64,000 nt of DNA from Octopus vulgaris (taxonomy: Eukaryota): NCBI GenBank assembly GCA_951406725.2, contig OX597832.1:54746001-54810000 (forward strand). Direction: 5' to 3'. The position numbers were made by a program, and so were the translations under genes. Positions 3,128 through 43,660 of this stretch are shown here, piece after piece. Under the pieces are notes generated by a model, which saw only the letters and a list, made by a program, of their open reading frames with translations, did not search any database and was not told where the DNA came from. How positions within the stretch are numbered: position 1 is the first letter of the stretch; every line of letters begins with the position of its first letter.

Positions 3128-5410
3128 TCATCTCAGTCTTTTACCAGCCATGCTACTCATTTTATCAATTATTTCTGGCTTTTGGTAAAACTTGGCATAG
3201 TTTTCCAACCACTTCCGCCTGTAACTCCACATTTCCCGAGCCATCTGTTCTTCCGTGTTTGTTGCTTTCTTCCATGCATTTTCCAGCACATTCTGTTCGC
3301 TTTTGCTATTGTTCTCCTCTTGAATGCTGGATATCATTTTTCGGTCAATTTCCTCGTATTTATCCTTGTGCTTATCAGCTTTCATCTTTGAAAGAACCAC
3401 TTCAGACTTCAAACACAACAGACTGATGTCATCTGAAATGCTTTGCCATTTCAAACTGTTTTGTTTTTTCGTATTCCATAATTTCGTTGGTAAAATTGTA
3501 GGGACATTCGCAGCCCAAGCCCGATAGATTTTAGCTTTCTCAGTACATTTTAAGTAAGTATAATAGGCATGTTCTCTTTTACTTAAATTGGAATTCCATT
3601 TCTTCCTGAATTCTTCTTGGCTGGTCTTCAGTTCCTTCATTTTACTAATATAGTCATTTAGCTGGCCTTTCTTTTCGTTTGTATATTCTCCGGTTCTAAA
3701 CATCCTTTGATTCGATTGTAAAGTTTCATATGTATTGTTATTACTGTTTTCTTTCCCAGTGAAAAGACAAACAGATATATTTCCACTCTGTAGCGGAACG
3801 TATTTCGGTGTTGTGTTATGACAAAGCGGAACTGTAGAGTCCATATCATACGATTCCGAGTTCTGAGATTTATTAAAAGGTTCCGTTGATAATTCAACGC
3901 TGCTTTGTTCCGTGTGATCGGTATCATTCTCGTCATCGATAGTAGAAATGGTGTCGGTATTAGAACTTGTTTCATTAACATCATTAAAATGCTTTTCTCT
4001 CTTATTAACACCAACGATATCAATTTCATTACAGTTGCTCATTACAGTACCTCGTTCATTTTTGTCCTTGCTACATTCTAAATCTTCTTCTTTCTTCGCA
4101 GACATGTTTTCGTTTTTATCTGTAAACAAGCTCTGATCTTTGCAGCATTCTTCGGCTGAATGTTCATCTGTATCCATTAAATCTTGCTTTGCTTGTGGAC
4201 TGGTTTTATATTCAGCGACTTTACTGCTGTTACTCGAGTTAATTTCTTCACCATTCGCGACAATATTCTCATTCTCATCCTCATCCTCATCTTCGTCCGT
4301 GTTTTTCCCTTTATTAATTAAGGCCAACATTTCGGCCCTTAATCGACTGCTAATATCTCCACCTTGTACAGTTCCTATACTATTAATCTCATCTTTACTA
4401 TTAATCTCATCTTCTTCATCCTTATCTTTGGTTTCACTTTCTTCCACATTGGGCATTGTATTAGCTTCCACATCTTCTGCTTTCTCCGGTGAGACAGATA
4501 TTTCATCTTTTAACTTTGATTGATCATCGCTAGATACTTCTTCAATCACACTGTCATCAGCATTATTTGTAGTATCGATATTGCTGACAGATTCCTCTTT
4601 TTCTTCATCATCCACTGGTGAAAGGCATAACACACTTGTATCTCCGTTGTCCACAGGTTCCTCACTATTTTCCAGGTCATCTTTATCTACTTCAGTTTCT
4701 TCTATGTAGCGTTTAGTTTCACCCAACACCTCCTGTACACATTCATAATTAGTGCTCTCTTCATTATCATCATAATTTCCTTTATCAATAGCTGAAAAAT
4801 TACGATTAATATGTTTCAAATTCGTTTGGTTCGTCCCTGGTACAGCATTCAGTATTTCTTCGTTACTACAAGTAACATCTTTAACTTCGTCTATTTTTCC
4901 CTCATCTTCAGTTTCTGACTTAACAGCACACGTTGTCACTTGAGAAACATCTTTCGCAGCATTTTTAATTTCTTCTTGTTCAACGGGAGGAGGTGGAAAA
5001 CAAATGCTAATTTTGGTGGTGCTTTTGCTAGCTTCGTTCATCTGCACAGCCCCTTCGCTTCCTATTGTACTTGACGGAACCATCAAAGTATCTTCGCTGT
5101 TGTTATTTTCAAAAGGAAAATGATTAAAGATAGATTTCAACTGAATCAGTTGCTGAGATCTTGGGATAAATTCCGGGGCATCAGCAGACATTTTAGACTT
5201 TGTAACACTTTTATATTGGCCGTGAACCGGTGTGTCCATCACATCTTCAACCATAGCATTGCTATGGTCCCCTGTCGAGAAAGTAACTTCTTCTTTTATT
5301 GCGACGTTAAGCTTTTGATTGAGAATTTTCATCAATTTTTTAATATCTTCAAAAGTTACAGATTTCTCATACGAATTTTGGTTCCGTGCTTTATGTCTGT
5401 GATTATTCAT
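3128..5410 (-). CDS. Uncharacterised 760-aa single-exon protein: PAM2-like motif, acidic low-complexity middle, Trp-rich predicted-helical C-terminal domain
   Basis: 2283-bp uninterrupted ORF of complex sequence in AT-rich DNA; ATG with A at -3 and an in-frame TAA four codons upstream; SKMSADAPEFIP at aa 72-83; candidate AATAAA at 2592-2597 (minus). Confidence 0.8.
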   Translation of the reverse strand: MNNHRHKARNQNSYEKSVTFEDIKKLMKILNQKLNVAIKEEVTFSTGDHSNAMVEDVMDTPVHGQYKSVTKSKMSADAPEFIPRSQQLIQLKSIFNHFPFENNNSEDTLMVPSSTIGSEGAVQMNEASKSTTKISICFPPPPVEQEEIKNAAKDVSQVTTCAVKSETEDEGKIDEVKDVTCSNEEILNAVPGTNQTNLKHINRNFSAIDKGNYDDNEESTNYECVQEVLGETKRYIEETEVDKDDLENSEEPVDNGDTSVLCLSPVDDEEKEESVSNIDTTNNADDSVIEEVSSDDQSKLKDEISVSPEKAEDVEANTMPNVEESETKDKDEEDEINSKDEINSIGTVQGGDISSRLRAEMLALINKGKNTDEDEDEDENENIVANGEEINSSNSSKVAEYKTSPQAKQDLMDTDEHSAEECCKDQSLFTDKNENMSAKKEEDLECSKDKNERGTVMSNCNEIDIVGVNKREKHFNDVNETSSNTDTISTIDDENDTDHTEQSSVELSTEPFNKSQNSESYDMDSTVPLCHNTTPKYVPLQSGNISVCLFTGKENSNNNTYETLQSNQRMFRTGEYTNEKKGQLNDYISKMKELKTSQEEFRKKWNSNLSKREHAYYTYLKCTEKAKIYRAWAANVPTILPTKLWNTKKQNSLKWQSISDDISLLCLKSEVVLSKMKADKHKDKYEEIDRKMISSIQEENNSKSEQNVLENAWKKATNTEEQMAREMWSYRRKWLENYAKFYQKPEIIDKMSSMAGKRLR

Positions 5411-5844
5411 TCTTATTCTTTATTTTTCAGACGCAAATTTTCCCTCAGAAATTCGAAGGTTGTTTGTTTGAATTATTCCTGGAAATGCTTTGACGCGAAT
5501 CTGTTGACAATTTTTTATCAAATTACAATATCTCTGTTCTTGTACAAATTTAATATCAACGATGTATTTCTAATTTCAGCATATACAAAATATTTTTAAA
5601 AAAACAAAAAAAATTATATATCCGGTAAGTTTCAAATTCGTGTTGTCTCCCAAATCTTCTTTCTAGAAGATTTTTTTCAGTTTGATTTTCAAATGATTAA
5701 CTTTTCCGTTACTGTCAATCGTAGGTCGATGATGTCATGTTTGGAACAACAAAACATATTTAGAATGAAATCTATTTAGAACAACTGGTTTCTTTAGCGT
5801 TCTCAGACTTCCAGAAAACATTCTATAACAGAATAAATTACGTC

Positions 5845-15264: not shown

Positions 15265-15495
15265 GGTGGCGAGCTGGCAGAAACGTTAGCACACCGGGCG
15301 AAATACTTAGTGGTATTGCGTCTGTCGTTGCGTTCTGAGTTCAAATTCCGCCGAGGTCGACTTTGCCTTTCATCCTTTCGGGGTCGATAAATTAAGTACC
15401 AGTTATGCACTGGGGTCGGTGTAATCGACTTAATCCGTTTGTCTGTCCTTGTTTGTCCCCTCTATGTTTAGCCCCTTGTGGGCAATAAAGAAACA
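15265..15495 (+). mobile_element. SINE family A monomer, full length
   Basis: 14-bp TSD gatattaatggtgg at 15256-15269 and 15496-15509. Confidence 0.93.
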
Positions 15496-15627
15496 GATAT
15501 TAATGGTGGTCTAATGGCTGACATTAAAAACAATAGTAGTCTAACTGTTATCTTGTCAAGATAGGGGTAGTCTAAATAAAATAAAATACATATGCAAATC
15601 TCCTTATTCATTGTAGATTATTATATA

Positions 15628-15810
15628 TTTCTTTATTGCCCACAGGGGGCTAAACATAGAGGGGACAAACAAGGACAGACAAGGGGGATTAAGTCGATTA
15701 TATCGACCCCAGTGATTGACTTGTACTTATTTAATCGACCCGGAAAGGATGAAAAGCAAAGTCGACTTCGGCGGAATTTGAACTCAGAACGTAGCGGCAG
15801 ACGAAATACC
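15628..15810 (-). mobile_element. SINE family A body
   Basis: Reverse complement of the family A body. Confidence 0.9.
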
Positions 15811-16401: not shown

Positions 16402-16795
16402 CATTTTCATTTTTTTTCATTTTTCATTTTCATCTAGTTTCAGTTCACGAGCTGTGGCCATGCTGGGGCACCGCCATTCGGTGTTGCTACATGATTTTAC
16501 TTCACGAATGCTTATATATGTAATATAAAGAATATATAAATATATATGCATACATACACATATATATATGTACATACATATATTTGTATATACATGCATA
16601 TATAGGCACAAGACACCAAGGAAAGTAAACAACATAGAATATACACAAAACACGAAAACAACAAAAAATGAACATCTTGGGGACAACGAAAGAAACAAAC
16701 GGAAAACAAGAAAAGCAGCACGAAAAGACGACCCTTCATCAGTTGTTGCCTGTTTTTCTACTCCGTATTTCGAGCATTTCACAATAACATGCGTT
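16402..16795 (-). mobile_element. Dispersed repeat with hammerhead-like boxes, microsatellite middle and SINE/RTE-type tail
   Basis: 5' part is homologous to 36730-36960 (+) and 43445-43660 (-); tail ggcggtgccccagcatggccacagctcgtgaactgaaactaga(tgaaaa)n also occurs at 31427-31495. Confidence 0.65.
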
Positions 16796-17228
16796 TTCGA
16801 CATATATATATCGGTCCCCGGGTTCAACTGGTACTTATTTTATCGACCCCGGAAGGTTCAAAGTCAAAGTCAACCTCGGTGGCGTTTGAATTCAGAACGT
16901 GAAGACGGACGAATTGTTGCAAAGCATTTTGTCCGGTGCATACATATATACATACATACATATATACATATATATATATATGTATATATAGAAATGTCGA
17001 ATTGTATTTGGCTGATCTAGAAACGTACGTTCTCAAATAATCTTTTCACTTGTGATTTTTTAATGTTTTTACCCCCATACCTTCGTGGGTTATTTTGAGT
17101 AAACACTATCTGAGAGAAATTTTCTTTAAGTATTAGAAATGGCTAAAAAAAATTTTTTACCTGCTATTTCTAATGAGTTCAGTATGTGGCAAAGTAATTT
17201 ATTTTACTAAGCCCTTTATAAAATGTAA

Positions 17229-19881: not shown

Positions 19882-20642
19882 TTTGATTTTAACGTTCAAA
19901 ACTTTCAGTACTCTATTTGTCTTTCCGCATGAGACATCGACTTTTGTTTCAAGAATGTTTTCTTTTGTCTTATTTCGGCTGTAAATGAATGGTTCTTTTT
20001 TTTTTTTGTTTACTTATGTTTAGGCTGAAGTATGTTGTTTTGAATATTCTTTTAAGCTTGTCCCCATCCCTGGCGCTATATATATATTATGTATATTTTT
20101 CTGTGTATTTGATTTTCTCCTTTTCACTTTACACAAATCTGTGACAACTGTATCTTTGACTGTTGATGCGCCAAGAGTTATGCAGTCTTGGTGTAACGCA
20201 ACGAAACCGTGGAAATTCCATAGCATATAGAGCTGACGAAAAGAAATCATATGCATTACATCACGACAACAAGGGTGACTCTGCTCATTGACTTGACCTA
20301 CTTAAAAACAGCAGTGAAGCGCTCTCCTTGAAACCAAGGTTTGGATTTTAAAAAGAAGACACTTTCAAAAGCTTCATCCTAAATATACTATAAATATACT
20401 AAAAGACGGAATGGTTAAGACTGCAAAAGCTCTAATCAAGAGTATACTAGATGAGGACTAATCTTGGGCTAAACCCTCGAGTAACCGAACATAGATTATA
20501 TTACTCTAATTAGTCTGTTAGCCTCATTCCACCTTTCCTTTCAGCTAAAACTTCCTGTCATCTAATTTTTTTTTGTTTTGTTTTGTTTCTAACGTAGGTA
20601 GAAGGTCAAGAATTTTGAGGAGAATGGCAAATCGATTTCATT

Positions 20643-36334: not shown

Positions 36335-36500
36335 CCTATTTCTTTACTGCCCACAAGGGGCTACACACAGAGGGGACAGGCAAGGACAGACAGACGGATT
36401 AAGTCGATTATATCGACCCCAGTGCGTAACTGGTACTTGTTTAATCGACCCCGAAAGGATGAAAGGCAAAGTGGACCTCGGCGGAATTTGAACTCAGAAC

Positions 36501-36502
<2 letters not shown>
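36335..36502 (-). mobile_element. SINE family A body
   Basis: Match to the other family A copies. Confidence 0.9.
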
Positions 36503-36554
<52 letters not shown>

Positions 36555-36729
36555 TAATGTTATTCTACTTGTCCTGTCTTTTACTATTTTTATTTATATT
36601 TTTACTGTCTTGTATTATTTTTACTGTCCTGTTTTTGTTATACTTTTACCCCTCCGCAAAAAATCTCAAATTTTATTTAATTTGCTTTGCGGGAAGGACC
36701 GTTTCACTGAAGTCGTGTCTCGCCTTTAC

Positions 36730-36960
36730 CTTCGAAACACGGAGTAGACGAAGCGGAGGCGGCTGAAGAAGGGGAATTTTCCTTGTGTTGTATGTCTTGT
36801 ACCTTGTTTTTTCGTTGTTTAAAAAAATGTCCGTTTCCATGGTTCTGTCTTTATGTCTTCGTTTCTCATCGTGTTCGACGCTTTTTATGGTGTCCTGTAC
36901 CTATATATGCATGTATATATACATATAGATGTAGGTACGTACATATATGTATGTATATAT
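36730..36960 (+). mobile_element. Dispersed repeat with permuted hammerhead-like boxes (copy 2)
   Basis: cgaaac...agtaga...ctgaagaagggg followed by a T-rich body and ggtgtcctgtac...gtaggtacgtacatatatg, shared with 43445-43660. Confidence 0.7.
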
Positions 36961-36998
36961 GCATATGTTTTGCTTATTATTTTGTTATTATATATATA

Positions 36999-43396: not shown

Positions 43397-43444
<48 letters not shown>

Positions 43445-43447
<3 letters not shown>

Positions 43448-43660
43448 ATATATGTACGTACCTACCTCTACATGTACATATACACGCATATATGTGTACA
43501 GGACACCAAAGGACGTAGAACACATAGAGAGACGAAAAACATAGACACAAACCAAGGAACAAGACAAGCAAAAAAAGGAGATACAGGACAATAAGCACAA
43601 CGAAAAATCCCCTTCTTCAGTCGCTAAAGTTTCATCTACTAAACGTTTCGAAGGATAATA
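43445..43660 (-). mobile_element. Dispersed repeat with permuted hammerhead-like boxes (copy 3)
   Basis: Minus strand ccttcgaaacgtttagtagatgaaactttagcgactgaagaagggg. Confidence 0.7.

Follow-up and report, generated by a model that had tools for sequence, protein, structure and literature searches.

A non-circularly permuted hammerhead-type motif, probably opened between A9 and G10.1, in a probable Penelope-like repeat family of Octopus vulgaris

A stretch of 64,000 nucleotides from the genome of Octopus vulgaris (contig OX597832.1, positions 54,746,001 to 54,810,000; hereafter the window) contains three copies of a repeat that, in our judgement, probably specifies a seven-helix hammerhead with its blocks in the order cleavage site, GAAA, CUGANGA and with a pair of extra helices placed between A9 and G10.1; the RNA of this non-coding, likely Penelope-like repeat would be cleaved after C36719. 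The original prediction had seen in these copies the GAAA and CUGANGA boxes of a type II hammerhead, and this motif is probably the 3′ half of the seven-helix fold. The conserved structure is larger than had been described, its start lying at window position 36648, some 85 nt upstream of CGAAA. As judged by eye, it is whole in only one of the three copies, copy 1 (Table 1). The block order itself is already known; the core-opened layout would be a variant beyond the published type SGC.

The positions and strands that had been assigned to the three copies are correct, and none of the copies has a mismatch to the pattern (0 matches expected in 100 shuffles). That the family is dispersed was borne out by a search of the genome (2.8 Gb, 227 contigs) with the exact pattern (31 places, AGTAGA-N14-CTGANGAAGGG), which gave 6,831 matches as compared to none for the reversed pattern. 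The spacing of 29 nt, however, is not fixed as had been proposed: with N10-18 instead of N14 the number of matches rose to 8,025 (control 8), and linkers of 15 nt and 12 nt occur, either as subfamilies or as single copies. The matches with looser spacing thus indicate that the family is real and large and that its spacing is variable. The linker sequences sort into about eleven subfamilies. Copy 3 was seen by eye to have a G at position 17 and to lack the upstream helices. No hammerhead family was found among the best 150 of 523 Rfam matches in the window, and three loci gave no Rfam matches at gathering score. A very abundant short repeat, the copies of which are 77-95% identical, abuts copy 1 (36401-36503) and occurs at about 20 other places; one pair of these (15331-15793) is arranged as an inverted repeat and has a sub-gathering Rfam score as a microRNA hairpin. 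The window also contains a lone match to 5S rRNA (1821-1929, + strand; 46.9 bits, with gathering at 38), which is perhaps a pseudogene or the head of a SINE, and a stop-free frame of 763 codons (3131-5419, − strand) with no Pfam match at E 0.01, which is likely a long exon.

Table 1. Copies of the repeat in the window and anatomy of copy 1. Double change refers to pairs in which both sides have changed.
Feature	Position	Strand	Remarks
Copy 1 of repeat	36552..36990	+	5′-truncated, between two (TA)n runs; ends approximate
Copy 2, subfamily B	43443..43658	−	5′-truncated about 7 nt after cut site, no site block; ends approximate
Copy 3, subfamily H	16530..16800	−	5′-truncated about 13 nt before cut site; ends approximate
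P7 5′ strand	36648..36653	+	Pairs with tail after A9; 85% paired, 2/6 pairs with double change
P5 hairpin	36654..36692	+	Flush against G10.1; 95% paired, 3/4 pairs with double change
Stem II 5′ strand, G10.1 at 36693	36693..36697	+	Separated from CUGANGA; 93.5% paired, 54/55 Watson-Crick
P4 5′ strand	36699..36705	+	78% paired in one register, 3/6 pairs with double change
Internal-loop strand with conserved GAA	36706..36712	+	Opposite AGUA
Stem III 3′ strand, U16.1 at 36718	36713..36718	+	91% paired, 4/5 pairs with double change
Predicted cut after C17, C36719 (GUC 36717-36719)	36719..36720	+	Structural analogy; C/A at 17; 5′-end pile-up
Stem I strand 3′ of cut	36720..36726	+	90% paired, 5/6 pairs with double change
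Stem II 3′ strand, C11.1 at 36733	36729..36733	+	Covariation
GAAA core box (G12-A15.1)	36734..36737	+	Pattern match
Stem III 5′ strand	36737..36742	+	Covariation
AGUAGA internal-loop strand	36743..36748	+	Invariant in alignment A2; cut site in original prediction
P4 3′ strand	36750..36756	+	One A-to-G change in copy 1 relative to its subfamily
Stem I strand 5′ of CUGANGA	36757..36762	+	Covariation
CUGAAGA core box (C3-A9)	36763..36769	+	Pattern match
Tail after A9 = P7 3′ strand	36770..36775	+	Rival reading: extra A and G-U-rich stem II

A block upstream of GAAA, which was missing from the original prediction, contributes to stem III (5-6 bp), the predicted cut triplet and stem I (6 bp). This block consists of a stem III strand, NUH and a stem I strand, and lies 15-17 nt upstream of GAAA. 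At least 9 of the 13 pairs are reached in 113 of 149 hits, the remainder being mostly truncated copies plus a few false hits, and in 105 of the 113 position 17 is located 15-17 nt before G12. A structure descriptor gave 131 hits on real loci compared to 3 on shuffled loci, and this descriptor is not satisfied by a further two GAAA...CUGANGA pairs, located at 20202 and 23235 of the window. P5 and P7, inserted between A9 and G10.1, hold the chain ends, while P4, the register of which slips by one between subfamily groups, extends stem III beyond an internal loop, as far as the ends of stems I and II. This loop (GAA/AGUA) matches what we take to be the bulged-G (loop E) consensus.

The resulting order of site, GAAA and CUGANGA is a non-circular permutation that corresponds to none of the circular types (I, II or III), and this motif has the type-SGC block order with crossing stems. 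Type SGC (HRIMA-1) was described with this order from metatranscriptomes (Eckert 2023, PMC10085705; here and below, available sections). Besides the block order, the octopus repeat shares with it three crossing helices, a crossover of 2-5 nt from stem I to stem II, the full core consensus, and a fourth helix that joins the far ends of stems I and II, although the partner strand of P4 differs from that in HRIMA-1. The unbroken C block of type SGC (stem I strand, CUGANGA, stem II strand) is, however, absent. Whereas CUGANGA is joined to stem II in types SGC and CSG, the 5′ strand of stem II lies upstream in the octopus repeat; P5 and P7 are inserted at A9/G10.1, and the fourth helix is continuous with stem III via the internal loop. 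In these sections the block with CUGANGA and stem II was assumed to be uninterruptible. The SGC and CSG examples stem from metatranscriptomes and metagenomes and, apart from one GCS candidate, from the genome of no known organism, in contrast to the thousands of animal genomic copies found here. Within the same parts of the text and supplement there is no mention of octopus, and none of Naiads in the supplement.

Pairing was evaluated in an alignment (A2) of 34 chosen copies with an intact upstream part, which represent 11 subfamily groups. Seven helices covary across the 34 copies. Of the 1,139 cells of the seven-helix model 87.4% are paired, as compared to 76.4% upon shuffling (0 of 500 shuffles as high), a test that is inflated by the relatedness of the copies, and to 39-50% for slid partners, a control that keeps relatedness but against which the model is favoured because it was drawn from the same sequences. 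Double-sided changes were found in 20 of the 34 pairs, including 3 of the 5 pairs of stem II. Nested minimum-energy folding, which cannot draw pseudoknots, did not give the full dumbbell for 5 of 6 copies. The core letters remain constant while the stems change: the CUGANGA and GAAA boxes, G10.1-C11.1, A15.1-U16.1 and H17 (C or A) are present in all 12 group majorities, with a single exception, the change of GAAA to AAAA in group E (2 copies). Unlike in other hammerheads, A9 does not lead into stem II immediately or after 1-2 nt, and the covarying partner is located upstream. This upstream segment, which was chosen as the best 5-mer in a 28-nt window, pairs with the strand before GAAA in 54 of 55 cases by Watson-Crick pairs (11 groups), with a G on C11.1, and it was found at the same place in every group, flush after hairpin P5. 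A stronger test than the shuffled and slid controls is the recurrence of the layout in unrelated families.

Naiads are Penelope-like elements (PLEs) that target (TA)n and for which no canonical hammerhead was reported in the available parts of Craig et al. 2021 (PMC8557442). What was noted there is limited to unexplained 'core' and 'half core' matches; in eight Naiads half a core is present, separated by 35-50 nt from its other half. Both the octopus and the bobtail squid Naiad belong to these half-core cases, the octopus Naiad being flagged as HHR_half_core. By eye, the 3′ UTR of the octopus Naiad consensus shows the core-opened layout. A 19-nt motif taken from this consensus has 327 matches in the genome, and the copies fit the same helices. 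The two parts were linked by a motif search from the reverse transcriptase (RT) side: of the 11 remnants of the Naiad RT (RVT_1, E 2e-4, short of Pfam's cut-off), 6 have the same layout 1,026-1,460 nt downstream. When an upstream ORF was sought for 20 long copies of the Naiad tail (17 motif hits), none of these reached one. The genomic Naiad 3′ ends (L131-L150, L191-L221) are mostly short and truncated, and few keep RT remnants upstream of the ribozyme.

The descriptor also identified a third family, K, an unrelated repeat of which an 18-nt motif has 4,054 exact matches in the genome (loci L033/L236, L096, L037, L086 and L232-L251); the loop between stem III and P4 is presumably kink-turn-like in this family. 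Both the Naiad and K families lack AGUA, yet they keep the layout. In each of the groups F, G, Naiad tail and K, upstream stem II, stem III and stem I form 5/5, 5/5 and 6/6 pairs, respectively, and these averages drop to 2.5, 2.4 and 3.25 when the strands are swapped among the groups. P5 forms 19 of 20 pairs across the four groups, and P7, the weakest helix, forms 17 of 20 (5, 5, 4 and 3 of 5) as against 3.2 of 5 for swapped strands, with P7 of family K beginning 2 nt off the junction. In the available parts of the published Naiad data, the layout could be drawn by eye in three Acropora Naiads and in four further consensus passages (parts 9, 12, 12 and 19); for the bobtail squid Naiad this applied to stems I, III and P4. 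Several Naiad 3′ ends in the nematode section (PMC8557442, supplement parts 13-16) have, as seen by eye in these parts, the blocks in type-CSG order (CUGANGA, site, GAAA), the core being unbroken and accompanied by a helix that resembles P4, which implies that both wirings may occur within Naiads.

The repeat RNA likely cuts itself after C36719, as judged by analogy with hammerheads in which G12 acts as the base and the 2′-OH of G8 as the acid (PMC11300833, sections available). Type-SGC RNAs cleave in vitro according to the available part of Eckert 2023 (PMC10085705). In a set of 104 pattern-selected copies, from which 2 inverted partners and 1 duplicate were dropped, 21 of the 5′ junctions are located at +1 to +17 and 11 at −90 to 0 (rate ratio 7.5; binomial p = 4e-8); this ratio leaves out 19 rows at +18 to +27, and the junctions include internal deletions. 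A peak is seen at +7 to +9, and not at +1. By eye, this is the position of the first TA step after the site, so that trimming to a match with the target TA would fit the peak. Alternatively, end-joining at the nearest TA or a stop of the RT, instead of cleavage, could be the source of these 5′ ends. In family K, 3 of 4 clearly truncated copies end at +4 to +6. For another PLE it was reported that hammerhead cleavage was not needed in vitro and that no reads ended at the site (PMC11167929). Contigs from 8 runs that we guess to be RNA cover the 832-nt unit described below; none was seen to end at the cut site, although contigs would not be expected to reveal such ends. At L061:4087, three runs of one sample show a template-switch tag, adjoining a 7-nt look-alike of the tag. 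The tag is oriented along the strand that does not encode the ribozyme; it is likely a library artefact, but it may mark an antisense start.

The original prediction that the motif marks a mobile RNA family holds: the copies number in the thousands, and (TA)n-bound tandem and inverted insertions occur among them. At locus L061, three units of 832 nt that are 99.9% identical lie between TA runs, and other tandem periods are 836-842 and 1,139 nt. These tandem units (L061-L063, L065) are non-coding and each of them carries the hammerhead motif, while truncated single copies form the majority. Of 120 copies, 8 have a repeat of their own tail upstream, (TA)n is present at the end of 148 of 179 copies versus 32% of random windows, and several copies are joined head-to-head to an inverted partial copy. 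Such head-to-head junctions are a hallmark of PLEs (Craig et al. 2021, PMC8557442, in the part available). Like these Naiads, the window family has (TA)n targets, tandem and inverted insertions and the ribozyme layout of the octopus Naiad 3′ UTR. Unlike Naiad, it has no ORF (none was found attached to it in flanks of 1.5 kb), the sequence that its copies share stops about 650 nt upstream of C3, and BLAST detected no similarity to the Naiad ribozyme region, the RNA architecture being shared. The host is thus likely a non-autonomous PLE with a non-coding, (TA)n-bound tandem unit of about 830 nt. We infer that Naiad may act as its helper, since the ribozyme layout and the target are in common, though not the sequence. 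A repeat of about 430 nt with inverted ends of 55 nt (L062:4053-4479; L223-L231) is often found beside TA runs; its dispersed copies are 96-99% identical over 374 nt and it is MITE-like.

The boxes had initially been read as a type II hammerhead with a stem III of 2 bp and cleavage after GUA in AGUAGA. The order GAAA, UH triplet, CUGANGA is indeed present and the 2-bp stem III can be drawn in 98.5% of the cells, but this stem shows no double change, the strand adjacent to GAAA already has a covarying partner of 5-6 bp upstream, and the layout is retained in the Naiad and K families, which lack the AGUA. Moreover, AGUAGA is one strand of the internal loop instead of a cut site and no stem I follows it. 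Type II (GSC) was rejected on the basis of its stem I, which is paired in 2.2% of the cells (4 pairs, 34 copies), and we regard it as very improbable. The identification of an unusually permuted hammerhead-type motif has stood; the type II fold and its cut site were wrong. A different reading, which we consider rather unlikely, is that the hammerhead is of the ordinary SGC type and keeps its C block whole, with an extra A after A9 and a short G-U-rich stem II formed with the tail, in which case the upstream stem II pairing, P5 and P7 would be an inactive off-state. Such connectivity is that of the published type SGC (PMC10085705), and in PLE hammerheads an additional nucleotide is located precisely at 9/10.1 (PMC4209133), both according to the available portions of these papers. 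The G-C/G-U stem II that had originally been drawn is paired in 94.9% of the cells if G-U is allowed, with a double change in 1 of 4 pairs and one G-C/U-G swap. However, only 21 of 55 pairs between the downstream tail and the stem II strand are Watson-Crick pairs (42 with G-U; 11 groups), and matched strands (1.91 pairs) do no better than swapped ones (2.04). Across groups F, G, Naiad and K the downstream stem II reaches 13 of 20 pairs versus 3.0 for swapped strands, and family K is unable to form it (2/5, no G-C at 10.1). The upstream strand, in contrast, gives G10.1-C11.1 in exact register in all 12 groups.

It is also conceivable, though slightly less so, that the fold derives from a hammerhead but no longer cuts, and serves as a binding or stop signal for the Naiad RT-endonuclease, the pile-up of 5′ ends then reflecting stalling of the RT in the knot. 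The junctions are spread from +4 to +27 without a sharp +1, and uncut RNA is the main substrate of the Anolis Poseidon element in vitro (PMC11167929). Against this reading, the drop in 5′ ends coincides with the predicted scissile bond, and the catalytic positions G8, G12, C3, H17 and U16.1-A15.1 are constant across families that have no stem sequence in common. Finally, stop-free frames of 160-210 codons cross several copies, as would be expected of the remnant of a protein-coding frame that is open through the motif. This candidate was rejected, and it is hardly credible, given that the subfamilies with 15-nt linkers break the frame, that the changes in the helices are compensatory, and that the longest ATG frame in the doubled unit has 151 codons.

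The seven-helix hammerhead with an opened core, which we prefer, can be compared to other rearranged hammerheads and to retrozymes. Like the pseudoknot (pistol-like) hammerhead, it keeps the core and has a rebuilt helix II region, but in the former A9 leads into G10.1-C11.1 and the block order is circular (PMC11300833, sections available). The core insertions in the available part of Perreault 2011 are located after A6, at 13 and near C3, and none of them is a helix at 9/10.1. Our literature search, which mostly covered journals outside subscription, found no description of the core-opened layout and no tested hammerhead with a break at the A9/G10.1 step that could serve as precedent. With animal non-LTR retrozymes and minimal PLE hammerheads the octopus repeat shares non-coding tandem units with one hammerhead each, and the extra nucleotide of PLE hammerheads at 9/10.1 falls at the step where the octopus core would be opened, in favour of such an opening. 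According to the available parts of PMC4209133 and bioRxiv 10.64898/2026.07.22.740005, retrozymes are regarded as non-autonomous PLEs, and cleavage as needing two copies. The type I hammerhead that characterises non-LTR retrozymes is not what the octopus fold displays: their type I motifs dimerise via a short stem III, whereas stem III of the octopus repeat is long and a two-copy mode would swap stems I and II.

In the mechanism that we propose, the RNA would fold into the seven-helix form and cleave after position 17, and tandem transcripts would be cut into unit-length RNA. A reverse transcriptase would be borrowed from a Naiad-type element, and reverse transcription would start in the AU-rich tail. 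Reverse transcription of PLEs can start inside the template (PMC11167929), which fits 3′ ends located in this tail. From cut templates short copies would arise, and from uncut or circular RNA long or tandem copies that exceed the unit. The core may close head-to-tail between two copies, such that tandem transcripts are cut and monomers spared. We rate this two-copy mode, a model of the fold, at just short of an even chance. It is suggested by the path of stem III, the loop and P4, which run straight to the far ends of stems I and II. Hammerheads have helix III stacked beneath helix II, with helix I alongside II (PMC4209133, part available), an arrangement that would put the far end of stem III at one pole and those of stems I and II at the other. 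Stem III of the window family is connected to stems I and II by the internal loop and P4 with 0-2 nt to spare, and in the available part of the published Naiad consensus sequences the arms were seen by eye to comprise 15 bp with a single bulged base in one case and 13 plus 10 bp in another. Such long, straight arms argue for closure between two copies, as for other PLE hammerheads. Two observations speak against a two-copy step: the loop at the stem III-P4 junction of the Naiad tail and family K, which we take to be kink-turn-like and which would suit a fold-back in one molecule, and the fact that most genomic copies are single.

If the seven-helix reading is true, the octopus repeat is a genomic, high-copy animal case of a non-circularly permuted hammerhead, a form for which the 2023 description relied almost entirely on environmental RNA. 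The assumed inseparability of CUGANGA and stem II would no longer hold, and wirings would be added to the six that were proposed. Three families in the octopus genome are concerned, with 8,025 (window family), 4,054 (K) and 327 (Naiad tail) exact motif matches. Since standard descriptors and Rfam miss the core-opened layout, the counts of animal ribozymes may be short by whole families. More tentatively, and with somewhat less than even confidence, we suggest that, across animal phyla, a core-opened, copy-counting ribozyme is present in Naiads and in the non-coding elements that parasitise them; by closing head-to-tail between two copies it would cut tandem transcripts and spare monomer circles, which would explain why Naiads appear to lack hammerheads. 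The finding, if true, would thus answer the stated puzzle of the missing Naiad hammerheads.
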